Shown here piece after piece: positions 22,820-62,332 of a stretch of DNA of 64,000 nucleotides. Position 1 is the stretch's first letter; each line of letters starts with the position of its first letter. Made by a program: the position numbers and the translations under genes. Source of the stretch: Eledone cirrhosa (Eukaryota); the NCBI GenBank assembly GCA_964016885.1, contig OZ024743.1, forward strand, positions 189,224,001 through 189,288,000. Reading direction: 5' to 3'. The notes beneath the pieces are model-generated. The model was not told the DNA's origin. It ran no database searches and was given only the letters and a program-made list of their open reading frames with translations.

Positions 22820-23488
22820 TTAATGTCCTTCGTGAATACTTATTGAACTGATGAAAATATAGGCAATGATCATTAGTACACCTTGGGTGGTGAAAATTAA
22901 GAAAGAAAATGTTGTGACAACAGAATCGTTTTCAGTTAAGAGATGCGATATTTTTTCATAACAGTCTTGTGTGTAGAGAAGGCAATTTGTGGTAGAATTA
23001 ATTTCTTTATCAACACAACATTTTGTGAGATTTTGGAACATTATCATGTTCTCTTTCAAAGAAGTGTTCAATACGGCATTTTTCATAATGTATTTCAAAT
23101 TGTTTCTCAAGGAATGTTCAAATGTAGACATATTGAGGATATTTAACACAAAAGCAGAGAACTCGATCCCCAAAATAAATATCATAGAGAAAACATAGAC
23201 AACAAGTAAAAACTTTAGTTCTCGATGTGTTCCACAATAACCTAAGATAGCCAGAATTAGCACTATCAATGAAGACGAAATCATAAGATAAGCACTGGCC
23301 GTTAATCTGTAATCATGAAGGTTGCGATCAGATGTAAGTTTTAATTTAGTCATACGGTCAAAGACAACTTGTTCATTGTGATTGGTTAAATAACCTGTAA
23401 TGATACCAGATAAACCAAGAAGAAACAGTAAGATGTTAGAAAACAACAAGATATATTTAACAACCTTAGTTCTCTGACTCAGTGGCAT
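22820..23488 (-). CDS. Tetraspanin-family membrane protein, single coding exon, 222 aa
   Basis: Intact ORF with four hydrophobic segments. KY.L...N in TM1, LGYCG..RE...L..Y at TM2/TM3, conserved E in TM3, large extracellular loop with CC(V) plus two more Cys, and Q in TM4. Confidence 0.88.
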   Translation of the reverse strand: MPLSQRTKVVKYILLFSNILLFLLGLSGIITGYLTNHNEQVVFDRMTKLKLTSDRNLHDYRLTASAYLMISSSLIVLILAILGYCGTHRELKFLLVVYVFSMIFILGIEFSAFVLNILNMSTFEHSLRNNLKYIMKNAVLNTSLKENMIMFQNLTKCCVDKEINSTTNCLLYTQDCYEKISHLLTENDSVVTTFSFLIFTTQGVLMIIAYIFISSISIHEGH

Positions 23489-23555
23489 ATTCTGAATGTA
23501 ATGTTGTTTTCAAATGGCTGTTGTCTTCTACTTCAATTTTAAAGCATGAAACAGA

Positions 23556-29064: not shown

Positions 29065-29069
<5 letters not shown>
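28790..29069 (+). repeat. PLE 3'-terminal (pLTR-like) segment, copy 1
   Basis: Colinear diverged copy of 37652-37950, which lies downstream of a GIY-YIG ORF. Runs directly into (TA)n. Confidence 0.7.
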
Positions 29070-36652
<7,583 letters not shown>

Positions 36653-36852
36653 NNNNNNNNNNNNNNNNNNNNNNNNNNNNNNNNNNNNNNNNNNNNNNNN
36701 NNNNNNNNNNNNNNNNNNNNNNNNNNNNNNNNNNNNNNNNNNNNNNNNNNNNNNNNNNNNNNNNNNNNNNNNNNNNNNNNNNNNNNNNNNNNNNNNNNNN
36801 NNNNNNNNNNNNNNNNNNNNNNNNNNNNNNNNNNNNNNNNNNNNNNNNNNNN
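36653..36852. other. Assembly gap (200 N)
   Basis: Run of N. Confidence 1.
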
Positions 36853-37950
36853 GCTAGACATAAGATAGGGAAGGCCACATCATGGTACGACAACCAGAGA
36901 TATCAGAGTGTCATGTTTGTGGACGCCACCCCTGGAGGGAAATTAGCTAACCAGTGTAGAAAGGCCCTGAGAAAGACCCACTTAAAAATAAAGGTGGTAG
37001 AAAAGCCAGGAACCACCATAAAATCCCTGATCAGCAAAACCTACCCTTTTAAGAAAACCCACTGTACCAATAGGAAATGTATCATATGTAAGGTGAACCC
37101 CCGGATAAACTGTAAAACTAGAAACGTAGTCTATAGCATAAGATGTACAGAGGGTACTTGTAGAAACACGACAACAACATACATAGGTGAGACAGCTCGT
37201 AGCATAGGTGAAAGGATAGACCAACACTGGGGGGAACTAAAAGGACGAAAAAACGGGTCAGTACTATACGAACATGCTAGACAACATCATGACGGTAACA
37301 TAGACAACATAGAAATTAGAATAATATCTAAACATAGGAATGACCCAGCAGATAGGCAAATCAGAGAGGCCAGTGAAATAGAAATTAGAAGACCAAAGCT
37401 AAACAGAAAGAATGAGTGGAACAACAACAACACCCAAACAAACAACACTGACCTAAGAGAAGTATAAATAAATAAGTAAATTAAATTAAATAAAATAAGA
37501 TAAATAAATACATACACAAGCACATAAACACACACTAGTCACCCAGCAGACACAACACTATACACACTAGTCACACATCACACACGCAAACGCATGCGCA
37601 AAGAAGACAAAATAAAATAAGATAAACAAACAAGCAAACAAATAAATAAATCTTTAGACGGACTGAACAAAAAAAATGGCGTAGACATACAACACAACAG
37701 GAGGAACAATGAATATAACACCACTGACGATGTTGCAGATGTGCAACGAAAGATTTATGTAAACTATATATATATGTGTTTGTCTATATTGTATCTGTAT
37801 TATTTTATTTTTGACCACCGGTCAGTCAATGGCAACATTGAGGACCGAGTAAGTTAGATCGCAGATATATATATATAAAAGACAGCGAGAAGCGAAAACC
37901 AACCAAACAGTGAGTGTGTTCTGTTATTAATTCTGGCAATATTACGCAAA
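36853..37950 (+). mobile_element. Penelope-like element 3' part: Zn-rich linker plus GIY-YIG endonuclease (ORF to 37467) and pLTR-like tail
   Basis: Open frame FVDATPGG...KVVEKPG...CTNRKCIIC...NVVYSIRC...YIGETARSIGERIDQH...LYEH...H...RQIREA..I....PKLNRKNEW. The 5' part is lost in the gap. Confidence 0.9.
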
Positions 37951-38033
37951 TATGACCCTCCCCAAATATAACAATATCTGTTTCGACACACGATTTCATA
38001 TAAAAAAACCTCGCAAAACTAATTCATCGCCGC

Positions 38034-40862
<2,829 letters not shown>

Positions 40863-42140: not shown

Positions 42141-42142
<2 letters not shown>

Positions 42143-42203
42143 AATGTAAGTATGCATGTATACGTACATACATATATGTATACAGACGTACAGTAGCATG
42201 CAC

Positions 42204-42235
<32 letters not shown>

Positions 42236-45200
42236 ATATACATATGCATACAGGTACACATACATATATGCACGTATCAGTTTAGCGGCGCTAACGTCGC
42301 TTTGTTCGTTTGTAAACAAACTGAACAGCCTGAATTTATGCCATACGGTGTTAAGGCAACCACGTCACCTTTTTGTTCAACACTGACACAGGAACGATGT
42401 ACTAGTTTCAAGCTTGTTAGCTATCATCAGCACCGTTTACCCATCTGCCAGATAGTTGAACGTTCGAAAGTATATACTTTCCTTATGAAAATTAACGGCT
42501 GAGCAGCCTAATTTGCATATTGAGTGAGTTAAATCGGTTAGGCATACCGAAAACGATAAATTGAAACAAAATGAAAACGAAATTTCATTTCTCACTCTTA
42601 GTATGGCACTTACTTAAATGTAAGTATGCATGTATACGTACATACATATATGTATACAGACGTACAGTAGCATGCACATATACATATATATATATATATA
42701 TATACACATATATATACATATGCATACAGGTACACATACATATATGCACGTATCAGTTTAGCGGCGCTAACGTCGCTTTGTTCGTTTGTAAACAAACTGA
42801 ACAGCCTGAATTTATGCCATACGGTGTTAAGGCAACCACGTCACCTTTTTGTTCAACACTGACACAGGAACGATGTACTAGTTTCAAGCTTGTTAGCTAT
42901 CATCAGCACCGTTTACCCATCTGCCAGATAGTTGAACGTTCGAAAGTATATACTTTCCTTATGAAAATTAACGGCTGAGCAGCCTAATTTGCATATTGAG
43001 TGAGTTAAATCGGTTAGGCATACCGAAAACGATAAATTGAAACAAAATGAAAACGAAATTTCATTTCTCACTCTTAGTATGGCACTTACTTAAATGTAAG
43101 TATGCATGTATACGTACATACATATATGTATACAGACGTACAGTAGCATGCACATATACATATATATATATATATATATACACATATATATACATATGCA
43201 TACAGGTACACATACATATATGCACGTATCAGTTTAGCGGCGCTAACGTCGCTTTGTTCGTTTGTAAACAAACTGAACAGCCTGAATTTATGCCATACGG
43301 TGTTAAGGCAACCACGTCACCTTTTTGTTCAACACTGACACAGGAACGATGTACTAGTTTCAAGCTTGTTAGCTATCATCAGCACCGTTTACCCATCTGC
43401 CAGATAGTTGAACGTTCGAAAGTATATACTTTCCTTATGAAAATTAACGGCTGAGCAGCCTAATTTGCATATTGAGTGAGTTAAATCGGTTAGGCATACC
43501 GAAAACGATAAATTGAAACAAAATGAAAACGAAATTTCATTTCTCACTCTTAGTATGGCACTTACTTAAATGTAAGTATGCATGTATACGTACATACATA
43601 TATGTATACAGACGTACAGTAGCATGCACATATACATATATATATATATATATATACACATATATATACATATGCATACAGGTACACATACATATATGCA
43701 CGTATCAGTTTAGCGGCGCTAACGTCGCTTTGTTCGTTTGTAAACAAACTGAACAGCCTGAATTTATGCCATACGGTGTTAAGGCAACCACGTCACCTTT
43801 TTGTTCAACACTGACACAGGAACGATGTACTAGTTTCAAGCTTGTTAGCTATCATCAGCACCGTTTACCCATCTGCCAGATAGTTGAACGTTCGAAAGTA
43901 TATACTTTCCTTATGAAAATTAACGGCTGAGCAGCCTAATTTGCATATTGAGTGAGTTAAATCGGTTAGGCATACCGAAAACGATAAATTGAAACAAAAT
44001 GAAAACGAAATTTCATTTCTCACTCTTAGTATGGCACTTACTTAAATGTAAGTATGCATGTATACGTACATACATATATGTATACAGACGTACAGTAGCA
44101 TGCACATATACATATATATATATATATATATACACATATATATACATATGCATACAGGTACACATACATATATGCACGTATCAGTTTAGCGGCGCTAACG
44201 TCGCTTTGTTCGTTTGTAAACAAACTGAACAGCCTGAATTTATGCCATACGGTGTTAAGGCAACCACGTCACCTTTTTGTTCAACACTGACACAGGAACG
44301 ATGTACTAGTTTCAAGCTTGTTAGCTATCATCAGCACCGTTTACCCATCTGCCAGATAGTTGAACGTTCGAAAGTATATACTTTCCTTATGAAAATTAAC
44401 GGCTGAGCAGCCTAATTTGCATATTGAGTGAGTTAAATCGGTTAGGCATACCGAAAACGATAAATTGAAACAAAATGAAAACGAAATTTCATTTCTCACT
44501 CTTAGTATGGCACTTACTTAAATGTAAGTATGCATGTATACGTACATACATATATGTATACAGACGTACAGTAGCATGCACATATACATATATATATATA
44601 TATATATACACATATATATACATATGCATACAGGTACACATACATATATGCACGTATCAGTTTAGCGGCGCTAACGTCGCTTTGTTCGTTTGTAAACAAA
44701 CTGAACAGCCTGAATTTATGCCATACGGTGTTAAGGCAACCACGTCACCTTTTTGTTCAACACTGACACAGGAACGATGTACTAGTTTCAAGCTTGTTAG
44801 CTATCATCAGCACCGTTTACCCATCTGCCAGATAGTTGAACGTTCGAAAGTATATACTTTCCTTATGAAAATTAACGGCTGAGCAGCCTAATTTGCATAT
44901 TGAGTGAGTTAAATCGGTTAGGCATACCGAAAACGATAAATTGAAACAAAATGAAAACGAAATTTCATTTCTCACTCTTAGTATGGCACTTACTTAAATG
45001 TAAGTATGCATGTATACGTACATACATATATGTATACAGACGTACAGTAGCATGCACATATACATATATATATATATATATATACACATATATATACATA
45101 TGCATACAGGTACACATACATATATGCACGTATCAGTTTAGCGGCGCTAACGTCGCTTTGTTCGTTTGTAAACAAACTGAACAGCCTGAATTTATGCCAT

Positions 45201-46929
45201 ACGGTGTTAAGGCAACCACGTCACCTTTTTGTTCAACACTGACACAGGAACGATGTACTAGTTTCAAGCTTGTTAGCTATCATCAGCACCGTTTACCCAT
45301 CTGCCAGATAGTTGAACGTTCGAAAGTATATACTTTCCTTATGAACATTAACGGCTGAGCAGCCTAATTTGCATATTGAGTGAGTTAAATCGGTTAGGCA
45401 TACCGAAAACGATAAATTGAAACAAAATGAAAACGAAATTTCATTTCTCACTCTTAGTATGGCACTTACTTAAATGTAAGTATGCATGTATACGTACATA
45501 CATATATGTATACAGACGTACAGTAGCATGCACATATACATATATATATATATATATATACACATATATATACATATGCATACAGGTACACATACATATA
45601 TGCACGTATCAGTTTAGCGGCGCTAACGTCGCTTTGTTCGTTTGTAAACAAACTGAACAGCCTGAATTTATGCCATACGGTGTTAAGGCAACCACGTCAC
45701 CTTTTTGTTCAACACTGACACAGGAACGATGTACTAGTTTCAAGCTTGTTAGCTATCATCAGCACCGTTTACCCATCTGCCAGATAGTTGAACGTTCGAA
45801 AGTATATACTTTCCTTATGAAAATTAACGGCTGAGCAGCCTAATTTGCATATTGAGTGAGTTAAATCGGTTAGGCATACCGAAAACGATAAATTGAAACA
45901 AAATGAAAACGAAATTTCATTTCTCACTCTTAGTATGGCACTTACTTAAATGTAAGTATGCATGTATACGTACATACATATATGTATACAGACGTACAGT
46001 AGCATGCACATATACATATATATATATATATATATACACATATATATACATATGCATACAGGTACACATACATATATGCACGTATCAGTTTAGCGGCGCT
46101 AACGTCGCTTTGTTCGTTTGTAAACAAACTGAACAGCCTGAATTTATGCCATACGGTGTTAAGGCAACCACGTCACCTTTTTGTTCAACACTGACACAGG
46201 AACGATGTACTAGTTTCAAGCTTGTTAGCTATCATCAGCACCGTTTACCCATCTGCCAGATAGTTGAACGTTCGAAAGTATATACTTTCCTTATGAAAAT
46301 TAACGGCTGAGCAGCCTAATTTGCATATTGAGTGAGTTAAATCGGTTAGGCATACCGAAAACGATAAATTGAAACAAAATGAAAACGAAATTTCATTTCT
46401 CACTCTTAGTATGGCACTTACTTAAATGTAAGTATGCATGTATACGTACATACATATATGTATACAGACGTACAGTAGCATGCACATATACATATATATA
46501 TATATATATATACACATATATATACATATGCATACAGGTACACATACATATATGCACGTATCAGTTTAGCGGCGCTAACGTCGCTTTGTTCGTTTGTAAA
46601 CAAACTGAACAGCCTGAATTTATGCCATACGGTGTTAAGGCAACCACGTCACCTTTTTGTTCAACACTGACACAGGAACGATGTACTAGTTTCAAGCTTG
46701 TTAGCTATCATCAGCACCGTTTACCCATCTGCCAGATAGTTGAACGTTCGAAAGTATATACTTTCCTTATGAAAATTAACGGCTGAGCAGCCTAATTTGC
46801 ATATTGAGTGAGTTAAATCGGTTAGGCATACCGAAAACGATAAATTGAAACAAAATGAAAACGAAATTTCATTTCTCACTCTTAGTATGGCACTTACTTA
46901 AATGTAAGTATGCATGTATACGTACATAC
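42141..46929 (-). repeat. Left arm of 476-bp hammerhead tandem array (~10 units, HHR sense on minus)
   Basis: 476-bp period. HHRs start at 42393, 42869, 43345, 43821, 44297, 44773, 45249, 45725, 46201 and 46677. Confidence 0.97.
42393..42437 (-). ncRNA. Type I hammerhead ribozyme (representative of 10 left-arm copies)
   Basis: Minus strand: AACGGTG-CTGATGA-TAGCTaacaAGCTT-GAAA-CTA-GTA-CATCGTT. Confidence 0.9.
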
Positions 46930-47011
46930 TAAGAGTGAGAAATGAAATTTCGTTTTCATTTTGTTTCAATTTATCGTTTTCGGTATGCCTAACCGATTTA
47001 ACTCACTCAAT

Positions 47012-47019
47012 ATGCAAAT
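47012..47019 (+). promoter_or_regulatory. Octamer motif ATGCAAAT (one per array unit)
   Basis: Perfect octamer about 75 nt upstream of the HHR in each unit. Function is inferred only. Confidence 0.4.
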
Positions 47020-47092
47020 TAGGCTGCTCAGCCGTTAATTTTCATAAGGAAAGTATATACTTTCGAACGTTCAACTATCTGGCAGATGGGTA

Positions 47093-47137
47093 AACGGTGC
47101 TGATGATAGCTAACAAGCTTGAAACTAGTACATCGTT
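47093..47137 (+). ncRNA. Type I hammerhead ribozyme (representative of 10 right-arm copies), predicted cleavage GUA| after 47130
   Basis: Stem I AACGGTG/CATCGTT (7 bp, one G-U), core CUGAUGA, stem II AGCU/AGCU with AACA loop, GAAA, palindromic stem III ACUAGU, GUA triplet. Confidence 0.9.
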
Positions 47138-50100
47138 CCTGTGTCAGTGTTGAACAAAAAGGTGACGTGGTTGCCTTAACACCGTATGGCATAAATTCAG
47201 GCTGTTCAGTTTGTTTACAAACGAACAAAGCGACGTTAGCGCCGCTAAACTGATACGTGCATATATGTATGTGTACCTGTATGCATATGTATATATATGT
47301 GTATATATATATATATATATATGTATATGTGCATGCTACTGTACGTCTGTATACATATATGTATGTACGTATACATGCATACTTACATTTAAGTAAGTGC
47401 CATACTAAGAGTGAGAAATGAAATTTCGTTTTCATTTTGTTTCAATTTATCGTTTTCGGTATGCCTAACCGATTTAACTCACTCAATATGCAAATTAGGC
47501 TGCTCAGCCGTTAATTTTCATAAGGAAAGTATATACTTTCGAACGTTCAACTATCTGGCAGATGGGTAAACGGTGCTGATGATAGCTAACAAGCTTGAAA
47601 CTAGTACATCGTTCCTGTGTCAGTGTTGAACAAAAAGGTGACGTGGTTGCCTTAACACCGTATGGCATAAATTCAGGCTGTTCAGTTTGTTTACAAACGA
47701 ACAAAGCGACGTTAGCGCCGCTAAACTGATACGTGCATATATGTATGTGTACCTGTATGCATATGTATATATATGTGTATATATATATATATATATATGT
47801 ATATGTGCATGCTACTGTACGTCTGTATACATATATGTATGTACGTATACATGCATACTTACATTTAAGTAAGTGCCATACTAAGAGTGAGAAATGAAAT
47901 TTCGTTTTCATTTTGTTTCAATTTATCGTTTTCGGTATGCCTAACCGATTTAACTCACTCAATATGCAAATTAGGCTGCTCAGCCGTTAATTTTCATAAG
48001 GAAAGTATATACTTTCGAACGTTCAACTATCTGGCAGATGGGTAAACGGTGCTGATGATAGCTAACAAGCTTGAAACTAGTACATCGTTCCTGTGTCAGT
48101 GTTGAACAAAAAGGTGACGTGGTTGCCTTAACACCGTATGGCATAAATTCAGGCTGTTCAGTTTGTTTACAAACGAACAAAGCGACGTTAGCGCCGCTAA
48201 ACTGATACGTGCATATATGTATGTGTACCTGTATGCATATGTATATATATGTGTATATATATATATATATATATGTATATGTGCATGCTACTGTACGTCT
48301 GTATACATATATGTATGTACGTATACATGCATACTTACATTTAAGTAAGTGCCATACTAAGAGTGAGAAATGAAATTTCGTTTTCATTTTGTTTCAATTT
48401 ATCGTTTTCGGTATGCCTAACCGATTTAACTCACTCAATATGCAAATTAGGCTGCTCAGCCGTTAATTTTCATAAGGAAAGTATATACTTTCGAACGTTC
48501 AACTATCTGGCAGATGGGTAAACGGTGCTGATGATAGCTAACAAGCTTGAAACTAGTACATCGTTCCTGTGTCAGTGTTGAACAAAAAGGTGACGTGGTT
48601 GCCTTAACACCGTATGGCATAAATTCAGGCTGTTCAGTTTGTTTACAAACGAACAAAGCGACGTTAGCGCCGCTAAACTGATACGTGCATATATGTATGT
48701 GTACCTGTATGCATATGTATATATATGTGTATATATATATATATATATATGTATATGTGCATGCTACTGTACGTCTGTATACATATATGTATGTACGTAT
48801 ACATGCATACTTACATTTAAGTAAGTGCCATACTAAGAGTGAGAAATGAAATTTCGTTTTCATTTTGTTTCAATTTATCGTTTTCGGTATGCCTAACCGA
48901 TTTAACTCACTCAATATGCAAATTAGGCTGCTCAGCCGTTAATTTTCATAAGGAAAGTATATACTTTCGAACGTTCAACTATCTGGCAGATGGGTAAACG
49001 GTGCTGATGATAGCTAACAAGCTTGAAACTAGTACATCGTTCCTGTGTCAGTGTTGAACAAAAAGGTGACGTGGTAGCCTTAACACCGTATGGCATAAAT
49101 TCAGGCTGTTCAGTTTGTTTACAAACGAACAAAGCGACGTTAGCGCCGCTAAACTGATACGTGCATATATGTATGTGTACCTGTATGCATATGTATATAT
49201 ATGTGTATATATATATATATATATATGTATATGTGCATGCTACTGTACGTCTGTATACATATATGTATGTACGTATACATGCATACTTACATTTAAGTAA
49301 GTGCCATACTAAGAGTGAGAAATGAAATTTCGTTTTCATTTTGTTTCAATTTATCGTTTTCGGTATGCCTAACCGATTTAACTCACTCAATATGCAAATT
49401 AGGCTGCTCAGCCGTTAATTTTCATAAGGAAAGTATATACTTTCGAACGTTCAACTATCTGGCAGATGGGTAAACGGTGCTGATGATAGCTAACAAGCTT
49501 GAAACTAGTACATCGTTCCTGTGTCAGTGTTGAACAAAAAGGTGACGTGGTTGCCTTAACACCGTATGGCATAAATTCAGGCTGTTCAGTTTGTTTACAA
49601 ACGAACAAAGCGACGTTAGCGCCGCTAAACTGATACGTGCATATATGTATGTGTACCTGTATGCATATGTATATATATGTGTATATATATATATATATAT
49701 ATGTATATGTGCATGCTACTGTACGTCTGTATACATATATGTATGTACGTATACATGCATACTTACATTTAAGTAAGTGCCATACTAAGAGTGAGAAATG
49801 AAATTTCGTTTTCATTTTGTTTCAATTTATCGTTTTCGGTATGCCTAACCGATTTAACTCACTCAATATGCAAATTAGGCTGCTCAGCCGTTAATTTTCA
49901 TAAGGAAAGTATATACTTTCGAACGTTCAACTATCTGGCAGATGGGTAAACGGTGCTGATGATAGCTAACAAGCTTGAAACTAGTACATCGTTCCTGTGT
50001 CAGTGTTGAACAAAAAGGTGACGTGGTTGCCTTAACACCGTATGGCATAAATTCAGGCTGTTCAGTTTGTTTACAAACGAACAAAGCGACGTTAGCGCCG

Positions 50101-50625
50101 CTAAACTGATACGTGCATATATGTATGTGTACCTGTATGCATATGTATATATATGTGTATATATATATATATATATATGTATATGTGCATGCTACTGTAC
50201 GTCTGTATACATATATGTATGTACGTATACATGCATACTTACATTTAAGTAAGTGCCATACTAAGAGTGAGAAATGAAATTTCGTTTTCATTTTGTTTCA
50301 ATTTATCGTTTTCGGTATGCCTAACCGATTTAACTCACTCAATATGCAAATTAGGCTGCTCAGCCGTTAATTTTCATAAGGAAAGTATATACTTTCGAAC
50401 GTTCAACTATCTGGCAGATGGGTAAACGGTGCTGATGATAGCTAACAAGCTTGAAACTAGTACATCGTTCCTGTGTCAGTGTTGAACAAAAAGGTGACGT
50501 GGTTGCCTTAACACCGTATGGCATAAATTCAGGCTGTTCAGTTTGTTTACAAACGAACAAAGCGACGTTAGCGCCGCTAAACTGATACGTGCATATATGT
50601 ATGTGTACCTGTATGCATATGTATA

Positions 50626-50656
<31 letters not shown>

Positions 50657-51730
50657 GTATATGTGCATGCTACTGTACGTCTGTATACATATATGTATGT
50701 ACGTATACATGCATACTTACATTTAAGTAAGTGCCATACTAAGAGTGAGAAATGAAATTTCGTTTTCATTTTGTTTCAATTTATCGTTTTCGGTATGCCT
50801 AACCGATTTAACTCACTCAATATGCAAATTAGGCTGCTCAGCCGTTAATTTTCATAAGGAAAGTATATACTTTCGAACGTTCAACTATCTGGCAGATGGG
50901 TAAACGGTGCTGATGATAGCTAACAAGCTTGAAACTAGTACATCGTTCCTGTGTCAGTGTTGAACAAAAAGGTGACGTGGTTGCCTTAACACCGTATGGC
51001 ATAAATTCAGGCTGTTCAGTTTGTTTACAAACGAACAAAGCGACGTTAGCGCCGCTAAACTGATACGTGCATATATGTATGTGTACCTGTATGCATATGT
51101 ATATATATGTGTATATATATATATATATATATGTATATGTGCATGCTACTGTACGTCTGTATACATATATGTATGTACGTATACATGCATACTTACATTT
51201 AAGTAAGTGCCATACTAAGAGTGAGAAATGAAATTTCGTTTTCATTTTGTTTCAATTTATCGTTTTCGGTATGCCTAACCGATTTAACTCACTCAATATG
51301 CAAATTAGGCTGCTCAGCCGTTAATTTTCATAAGGAAAGTATATACTTTCGAACGTTCAACTATCTGGCAGATGGGTAAACGGTGCTGATGATAGCTAAC
51401 AAGCTTGAAACTAGTACATCGTTCCTGTGTCAGTGTTGAACAAAAAGGTGACGTGGTTGCCTTAACACCGTATGGCATAAATTCAGGCTGTTCAGTTTGT
51501 TTACAAACGAACAAAGCGACGTTAGCGCCGCTAAACTGATACGTGCATATATGTATGTGTACCTGTATGCATATGTATATATATGTGTATATATATATAT
51601 ATATATATGTATATGTGCATGCTACTGTACGTCTGTATACATATATGTATGTACGTATACATGCATACTTACATTTAAGTAAGTGCCATACTAAGAGTGA
51701 GAAATGAAATTTCGTTTTCATTTTGTTTCA

Positions 51731-51736
<6 letters not shown>

Positions 51737-53202: not shown

Positions 53203-54695
53203 TCATTGCGGGCAGCCTCACCACTTCCACTCTGGAGCAGAACATCTGAGGCAATATCATGGTTCCAAAAATTACCCGATAAACACCACACTCGCTTCCT
53301 GCAACTCGACATAGAAAACTACTATGCCTCTATCTCGGAGCCCCTCCTGAAGGACGCAATTAACTTTGCCAGGAACTTTACCACCATTACCGATGCTGAG
53401 CAAGTTGTTATCCTCCACGCTCGTAAGACATTTCCATACCACAATGGATCTTACTGGATCAACAAGAAATCTCAGACCCCATTTGACGTTAGCATGGGGG
53501 CGAGTGACTCGGCTGAAATTAGCGACCTTGTGGGCCTGTACATCCTACATAACCTGAAGAACCTCTTTACCGGCCTAACGGGAGGTTTATACCGAGACGA
53601 TGGCCTCTTCGCCCTGCATAAGGTTAACCCCAGAACCACCGATGGGTTTCGGAAAAACTTAAGCTCTTTCTTCTCTAATCTAGGATTTAGTATAACTATA
53701 GATTCTAATTTGACTAGGGCCAACTTCTTAGATGTCACTCTCGACCTAGATACTTCCCTCTATTACCCGTACCACAAACCTAACGAGTCCCTTAAATATA
53801 TTAATGTTAATTCAAACCACCCCCAAAACATCACTGATAACATGGTAAAAAGCGTCTCTATTAGAATATCTGGCCTCTCCGCCAACAAAGATATTTTTAA
53901 TGCATCTGCCTCCTACTACAATGACGCCCTCGCCCGTAGCGGATTTAAAGATAAGATAACTTACCTAGAAACCACCGCAAGATTGCAGAGGAGGAATAGA
54001 CATAGGCAGATTAGCTGGTACAACCCTCCCTTCAATAGAGAGGTTTCTACTCCGATAGCTAGGATTTTCTTCACTTTACTGAAATTACACTTCCCCATTC
54101 AACATAGGTACCACACCATCTTTAATAAGAACACAATAAGACTGTCTTACTCCACCACACCTAACCTAGCTAGGAATATAGCCAACCACAATTCTAAAAA
54201 ATTAAATAAGCCAACCACCTCCGAAACCAATCCCCGGACTGGGGCTCTATGTAATTGCCTAAATAAGGAAGCATGCCCACTTGAAAACAAATGCCTCACA
54301 AATGATATCGTATACAAATGCGATGTCATCTCAGGCACCGAGGATTGCAAAAAAACTTACATCGGCATGACCTCCAACAACTTTAAGACCCGTTGGTATG
54401 CCCATACCCACTCCTTCAGAAGACCGGATAAATCAAATCAGACAACACACGCCTCCTACGTTTGGGACCTCAAAAGGAACTCCACCCCCGTCACGCTTAA
54501 ATGGAAAATACTCCAGAAAGCGCGCTCTTACAACGGAGGACACAAGGGCTGCGACCTTTGTATTTCAGAGAGCTACGAAATTTTATTCGCCAAGGGCCGC
54601 TCCTGAACAAACTCTCTGAACACTGCCCGAACTGCATGCACAAGAACTTTGCAACTTTCAAACACTTTAAGCCAGTGTTAATGCCCGATGGCTAA
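53203..54695 (+). mobile_element. 5'-truncated Penelope-like retroelement: RT plus C-terminal GIY-YIG endonuclease
   Basis: Open frame of ~465 aa: [69 protein letters not shown]...YIGMT...FKTRW..H, CDLCISE. A single frameshift near 54597 moves LLNKLSE...CMHKN into another frame. Inserted in (TA)n. Confidence 0.93.
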
Positions 54696-60579: not shown

Positions 60580-60630
60580 AGATTCCTGATGATTTCTAAA
60601 GAATGAAACAGTTCTAGTCCTGTAGAATCT
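60580..60630 (+). ncRNA. Type I hammerhead ribozyme, predicted cleavage GUA| after 60624
   Basis: AGATTC-CTGATGA-TTTCtaaaGAAT-GAAA-CAGttctagtcCT-GTA-GAATCT. 6-bp stem I and 4-bp stem III. Confidence 0.85.
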
Positions 60631-60712
60631 CTTCTATATTAAAACTTTTATACTCTGCTATGTATTGAGTACCTTACTTACTGTGGTTACCTCCGATTCA
60701 ACCCGGAATAAC

Positions 60713-62081
<1,369 letters not shown>

Positions 62082-62253: not shown

Positions 62254-62332
62254 ACACACGTACAAATCCAAAGATATGTTTCACCAGAAAATTTGTTGAA
62301 AGAAATGGTAGTCTCGGTTCATCAGCGTGTGT
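62254..62332 (-). ncRNA. Type I hammerhead ribozyme
   Basis: Minus strand: ACACACG-CTGATGA-ACC(G)AGA..loop..TCTGGT-GAAA-CATATC-tttg-GATTT-GTA-CGTGTGT. 7-bp stem I and 6/7-bp stem III. Confidence 0.88.

Follow-up and report, generated by a model that had tools for sequence, protein, structure and literature searches.

Within a 64,000-nucleotide stretch of the Eledone cirrhosa genome (the window; contig OZ024743.1, positions 189,224,001 to 189,288,000), a short unit with a hammerhead-like motif is repeated in tandem. The original prediction was that this ribozyme cleaves efficiently only where two units lie side by side, which would give the tandem organisation a function. The locus raises the questions of whether the motif is a true hammerhead, whether it depends on a neighbouring unit, and whether such a dependence explains the arrays.

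The hammerhead motif and its helix I

The motif is a real type I hammerhead, present once in every 476-bp unit. The first copy of the right arm of the array, at 47069..47155 (+), was examined by sequence, folding, a hammerhead descriptor and Rfam. Its core elements are CUGAUGA (47100-06) and GAAA (47121-24). Together with a proximal helix I of 6 bp (47094-99/47131-36) and U1.7 at 47137, the core spans 47094..47137 (+). The cut is predicted after GUA, between A17 (47130) and 47131 (+). CUGANGA, GAAA and NUH are in register, three helices can be drawn, and the ends lie in helix I. In the monomer, helix III (47124..47129, +) is reduced to 1 bp, an A-U pair closed by a palindromic CUAG loop. The whole strand, ACUAGU, is self-complementary, as had been noted at the outset, and makes a 6-bp duplex in the predicted double hammerhead. 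Stem II (47107..47120, +) comprises 14 nt, starting from a U.U base, followed by pairs and a loop with A as its last base. This U10.1.U11.1 stands where G10.1-C11.1 is usual, as in the active HHR_Amex2, and was present in 70/70 copies, a count largely imposed by the search motif.

The 5' strand of the distal helix I (47069..47090, +) pairs with 47138-47155. The segments named in the original prediction all pair as claimed, namely GUUCAAC/GUUGAAC (47069-75/47149-55), CUGGCA/UGUCAG (47079-84/47142-47) and GGG/CCU (47088-90/47138-40). The 87-mer folds with -27.4 kcal/mol (z = -3.6), and none of 200 shuffles was equally stable. The extended and bulged character of helix I therefore stood, but the proposed 7-bp stem I did not. 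In AACGGUG/CAUCGUU (47093-99/47131-37), the seventh position, 2.7/1.7 (47093/47137), carries U.U in 64 of the 70 distinct copies of the family and an A-U pair in 4, so that helix I is better described as 6 bp, a bulge and about 16 further pairs. The U at 47137 was found in 68/70 distinct copies. In PMC11875169, U1.7 is reported to pair with the final A of loop II; the bases for the predicted contact between loop II and helix I are present. A2.7 is the mark of the window's own subfamily (8,754 cores), where it could pair with U1.7 in competition with the loop II contact.

In the window, the descriptor recognised the 20 copies of the array and a single further hammerhead, that of a PLE, and it returned no match in 30 shuffles. 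Rfam gave no match to the motif at gathering score; the strongest of four sub-threshold matches was Hammerhead_HH9 (E 0.022, 18.5 bits versus a gathering score of 52). A match to a curated model would support the assignment but does not define a type I hammerhead.

Judged from the variation among copies, helix I is conserved as a structure. Recurrent variants at paired sites retained the pair in 7/10 cases and rare ones in 12/52 (Fisher p 0.006; 88 distinct gap-free copies, which are related and include loci chosen for loop or U16.1 changes). Three common changes in the distal helix are one-sided (C-G/U-G, G-U/A-U, A-U/G-U), and the sole two-sided change in helix I is at 47097/47133. Two subfamilies share 78/87 positions (90%) of the 87-mer, versus 199/286 (70%) in the non-microsatellite remainder of the unit. 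Once the linear monomer is folded, its 5' and 3' ends are brought together by the distal helix. Because helix I must swap partners in the double hammerhead, the likeliest role of the distal helix in these models is that of a clamp, closing the excised monomer for circularisation, rather than that of a dimerisation aid.

A genome-wide search with the U.U-type pattern gave 47,763 matches in 3.0 Gb, versus 586 for the control. Family A, the type in the window, accounted for 26,439 cores, with CUAG retained in 25,179. Family B had 14,580 cores and a 310-bp unit, and smaller U.U-type groups contributed 1,440 matches versus 169 in the control. Four runs (all contigs) contain family A, with no change in the CUAG loop at 10% or more; ends, strand and level are not readable from them. 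The unit appears to be non-coding; its only frame of note runs for 137 codons from stop to stop and shows no evidence of coding. In the element, non-coding units a few hundred bp long thus follow one another in tandem, and each contains a type I hammerhead (20/20 cores intact); the element is dispersed in many copies, low in GC and without LTR structure. We conclude that it is a non-LTR retrozyme family, a new member of a published kind that fits the elements described in PMC7229834.

Upstream of the ribozyme we noted an octamer, ATGCAAAT (47012-19, +), and TATATA (47054-59, +). The octamer and a TATA-like box precede the hammerhead in family A and in family C (family C loci L106, L108, L140-L142) and are absent from family B. 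We take the stretch 47012..47059 to be a possible, putative internal promoter. Retrozymes seem to be promoterless according to PMC7761336.

Cleavage as a dimer or as a monomer

From its predicted folds, the family A hammerhead likely cleaves as a dimer of two adjacent units. In a two-unit RNA (563 nt, ViennaRNA), the double hammerhead was 7.7 kcal/mol below the monomer-active fold, with probabilities of 6e-3 and 2.5e-8, respectively; family B gave -7.6 in the same comparison. In trans, -56.0 was calculated for the dimer, versus -50.0 for two open monomers and -39.2 for two active ones. The helix III strand was computed to be unstable as a monomer and stable as a dimer. Loops were also swapped in silico. 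The difference between double and monomer fold was -5.3 to -11.3 for five palindromic loops, and -4.3 to +3.7 for seven non-palindromic ones. The MFE structure of the two-unit RNA, 0.9 kcal below the double hammerhead, is inactive and relies on a second palindrome, CAAGCUUG.

The sister families are consistent with these calculations, and so is the young PLE of this genome (see below), which combines a U.U-type core with a 4-bp helix III. The loop III comparison covered families A, B and C, which have in common a 6-bp helix I, U1.7, the final A of loop II, and a long distal helix that differs in sequence. The family B loop is CGCG (100/100 among the matches listed of 14,580 cores) and that of family C is UGCA. 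Families with a long stem II and UAUA loops were left out of this count. A family with an apparently non-palindromic CAAU loop was also left uncounted, since the pairing at L104 and L116 does not support a 1-bp helix III.

A monomer might nevertheless cleave adequately, if the contact between loop II and the bulge and the long helix I offset the 1-bp helix III; the palindrome would then be ancestral or merely helpful. We consider this unlikely. It would agree with the retention of U1.7 and the loop II A in all three families, and with the order of folding, in which the local helix I (-25 kcal) is the first to form during transcription and may trap monomers. Contacts within the core and between loop and bulge, which nearest-neighbour energies omit, could rescue a monomer, and coral and mussel retrozymes cut as monomers (PMC7229834). 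Those retrozymes, however, possess a 2-bp helix III, and the axolotl type with 1 bp and every tertiary contact was only 6% cleaved after 1 h as a monomer, dimers being far more efficient (PMC7229834). In the MFE structure of the isolated monomer C3-U4-G5 is buried by mispairing, and the active monomer has a probability of 1e-6. Moreover, a monomer offers no reason why CUAG, CGCG and UGCA should all be palindromic.

Folding energies, the palindromes of sister families and published assays of the same architecture thus favour the predicted need for two adjacent units, though not its novelty. Dimer cleavage of tandem type I hammerheads is already stated in PMC4209133 and PMC6765202. Published axolotl retrozymes already show a helix III of 1 bp under a palindromic tetraloop, a U.U stem II and cleavage as a dimer. 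Dimer dependence for such an architecture is therefore known, and family A adds one more example.

Inverted arrays, their ends and the PLE

The arrays have two arms. In the window, the right arm (46925..51736, +) contains 10 head-to-tail units of 476 bp and terminates at a site A into (TA)n, and the left arm (42141..46929, -) contains 10 units in the opposite orientation and terminates at a site B into (TA)n. The arms overlap by 5 nt (CATAC) at the inversion junction (46925..46929). A 58-nt 'tail' between end sites B and A is present solely at the end of the right arm (51678..51735, +). The units are nearly identical, with deviations in 3 of 18 compared. The first seven arrays examined were all inverted, and in each of them the two outer ends lay in (TA)n. 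Arm copy numbers in the six others were 16+2, 3+1, 3+6, 6+8, 3+9 and 4+4, with differing junctions, and many insertions carry one unit per arm.

Two outer ends of different type are the rule. One A end and one B end were found in 23 of 28 inverted family A loci, and two A ends in none (0/28), these loci being those among the fetched sequences rather than a random sample. The other five of the 28 comprised one B end with an end inside the tail, and four loci with a truncated end. Site B lies 58-70 nt upstream of site A in family A. Family B had heterotypic ends in 4/4 loci and a tail of about 33 nt. Among the first 100 matches, all 12 strand switches within 700 bp were minus-then-plus. The unit haplotype is array-specific and common to both arms; the haplotype of the window equals that of C1_87, and those of C1_252, C1_123, C1_116 and C1_337 differ.

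An inverted insertion with a tail at one end and a microsatellite target (23/28 inverted loci) is characteristic of PLEs. The heterotypic (TA)n ends, which are the PLE 'tail' signature, together with the array-specific haplotypes in both arms, point to a PLE copying a single template in one step. From these sequence features we infer that one template, either circular or multimeric, underwent twin priming.

It is less probable still than cleavage as a monomer that the ribozyme is a nearly inactive, dispensable passenger from a PLE terminal repeat, with arrays coming from uncleaved multi-unit transcripts or local DNA duplication. Adjacent units sometimes share inactivating or loop changes (C1:333144127 and 333144558; L152), suggesting that tandem copies have in some cases arisen without a functional ribozyme. 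Stem II carries U.U, and A2.7 is able to pair with U1.7 in the subfamily of the window. In vitro, PLE insertion is independent of hammerhead cleavage, and unprocessed RNA is the main substrate (PMC11167929). Eight of nine Xenopus dimers did not cleave, and unequal crossover has been proposed (bioRxiv 10.64898/2026.07.22.740005). Against this, core and helices are conserved while the spacer diverges, and recurrent changes retain pairs. Inverted arms with one haplotype and fixed heterotypic ends are not expected from unequal crossover either. An origin of the 10+10 palindrome as an artefact of assembly or of fold-back reads, as the equal copy number and near identity of its arms might suggest, can be dismissed almost completely, since neither flanks nor variants are mirrored, the six other arrays show the same design with mostly unequal arms and different junctions, and the 12 close strand switches all run in the same direction.

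A possible mobiliser is encoded in the same genome. An autonomous young PLE is present in copies that are 96-98% identical and have intact 758-codon frames. In the window, a 5'-truncated frame of this family with RT and GIY-YIG-like motifs lies at 53203-54606 (+). The young PLE's hammerhead at 60586-60715 (+) has a 4-bp helix III with CUAG at the centre of loop III, and is followed by the long end into (TA)n. This hammerhead has a U.U-type core and an active-monomer probability of 2e-4, versus 1e-6 in family A. Of the 25 hammerhead copies of the PLE, 9 terminate at a short site and 6 at a long one, about 69 nt further on; 9 others continue into the frame and 1 is diverged. By eye, the family B core closely resembles that of the young PLE.

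Direct sequence links between family A and a PLE were sought as well. Among the matches listed (100 of 280), there was no autonomous PLE with the stem II of family A and a long helix III. A blastn comparison of the unit with 30 PLE loci yielded microsatellite matches alone among the first 40 matches listed, and the similarity of the PLE tail to families A and B was not significant (p 0.50 and 0.92). Family A has no terminal-repeat sequence in common with the one PLE family examined. The PLE assignment itself rests on motifs and architecture, because Pfam gave no name to either PLE frame, a PDB sequence search gave no meaningful match, and GIY-YIG (PF01541) was found in 2 of the 120 homologues listed.

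The steps from transcript to array can be proposed as follows. A multi-unit transcript would be made, in which the 3' helix I strand of unit n would exchange its partner for the 5' strand of unit n+1 and the two ACUAGU strands would pair as a 6-bp helix III. The cut after GUA would free a 476-nt monomer with its ends kept together by the long helix I. A host ligase would close the monomer, and a circle with one weak hammerhead would resist re-cutting. The PLE reverse transcriptase/GIY-YIG protein would then nick (TA)n and prime two cDNAs on the template, one at site A and the other at site B; joining of the two by microhomology would give the back-to-back array. Within this scheme, the type I hammerhead of the retrozyme quite probably cuts as a domain-swapped double hammerhead of two adjacent units.

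A broader reading joins two proposals, and we give it somewhat better than even chances. First, arrays would be born whole in one PLE event, by twin-primed rolling-circle reverse transcription on one circular RNA with one fixed site per nicked strand, so that tail and inversion would be two faces of the same event. Second, a natural series would begin with a PLE hammerhead of the monomer type, with its 4-bp helix III, and lead to dimer-only retrozymes (family B, with families A and C having independent palindromes). The proposed function of the tandem organisation is only half right. The arrays, tandem and inverted as they are, look mostly like a by-product of insertion, circle-forming retrozymes need two ribozymes anyway, and many insertions have a single unit in each arm.

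The insertion architecture, two-ended and inverted, matters more than the dimer idea, which was already established. PLE mobilisation of animal retrozymes has hitherto been argued from co-occurrence and terminal-repeat similarity, and PMC8557442 regards the origin of PLE inversions and tails as undefined. The young, short insertions, which number in the thousands, are nearly identical and carry one end of each type; they provide a large natural read-out of the inversion/tail step, and the young PLE with its intact frames could be assayed. If the joint reading is true, PLE second-strand priming and retrozyme mobilisation become directly testable.

Several observations concern the surroundings of the arrays. 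A transcript reading through 42141-51736 from either flank would form a perfect hairpin of 4.8 kb, a possible source of small RNA that would also block ribozyme folding. At L124 (G000:C1:5539000-5548500), a family A insertion is flanked by an inverted 27-bp target duplication, and a family B array adjoins it. In the window, about 11.8 kb of (TA)n-type microsatellite (29069-40859) is broken by 200 N and a PLE piece; the 3' piece of a second PLE-like frame follows the N gap at 36853-37467 (+). A minimal-type hammerhead-like motif with an extra U, G10.1-C11.1 and a GAUU loop is found at 37724-37762 (+) and fails the descriptor. A 539-bp direct repeat at 62325 and 62864 (-), followed by an inverted piece, contains in each repeat a hammerhead-like motif whose stems II and III are long and which also fails the descriptor; the repeat is possibly another retrozyme or a PLE terminal repeat. 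Further hammerhead-like families lie beside PLE copies at L084, L086, L094, L096, L097, L098 and L101. A single-frame tetraspanin match is located at 22820-23509 (-; Pfam PF00335, E 4.6e-19).

Comparison with known systems

The closest relatives in design are HHR_Amex1 and HHR_Amex2 of axolotl and newt (PMC7229834), which are likewise tandem, non-coding type I hammerhead units with GC below 50% and tens of thousands of copies. HHR_Amex1 shares the 1-bp helix III with a palindromic tetraloop, and HHR_Amex2 the U.U at the base of stem II; family A differs in uniting both weakening features in one ribozyme. Cleavage as a dimer is common to both systems, although here it is predicted from folding. 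The unit is 420-500 bp in length here versus 330-350 in axolotl. The inverted, two-ended (TA)n arrays are absent from the main text of PMC7229834. We did not find such an architecture described for retrozymes in passages of this and other literature, including bioRxiv 10.64898/2026.07.22.740005 and PMC7761336; parts of the architecture may already be described in supplements or elsewhere.

PLE minimal hammerheads (PMC4209133) are alike in the palindromic loop III, the predicted dimers and the occurrence of PLEs in the same genomes. They are reported to have a long helix II, a helix I of 4-5 bp and an additional base preceding G10.1-C11.1, and to lack a clear loop 1. In contrast, family A has the canonical 14-nt stem II geometry, U1.7, an extended helix I and no ORF. 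We therefore rejected its classification as a PLE minimal hammerhead, for which the long helix II, the extra base with G10.1-C11.1 and the short helix I would be needed.

PLE insertions resemble the arrays in the inverted 5'-truncated copy, the tail at one end and the (TA)n targets (PMC8557442), and also in having two adjacent start sites for reverse transcription (PMC8557442, PMC11167929). The PLE tail corresponds to the distance between the two start sites (PMC11167929). PLE tails are described as 30-40 bp long (PMC8557442, PMC11167929); the tail of family A measures 58-70 nt and that of family B about 33 nt. Among PLEs, non-autonomous head-to-tail elements have been reported as well (MRC1; PMC8557442, PMC11167929). 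What distinguishes the arrays from PLE insertions is that the entire insertion consists of many copies of a short ribozyme unit, and that each arm uses a different site.

Retrozymes have been proposed to be non-autonomous PLEs (bioRxiv 10.64898/2026.07.22.740005), and the co-occurrence with a young PLE and the PLE-like core of family B agree with this proposal. The argument presented there relies on co-occurrence and pLTR similarity and invokes local amplification, whereas here its basis is the architecture of the insertions.
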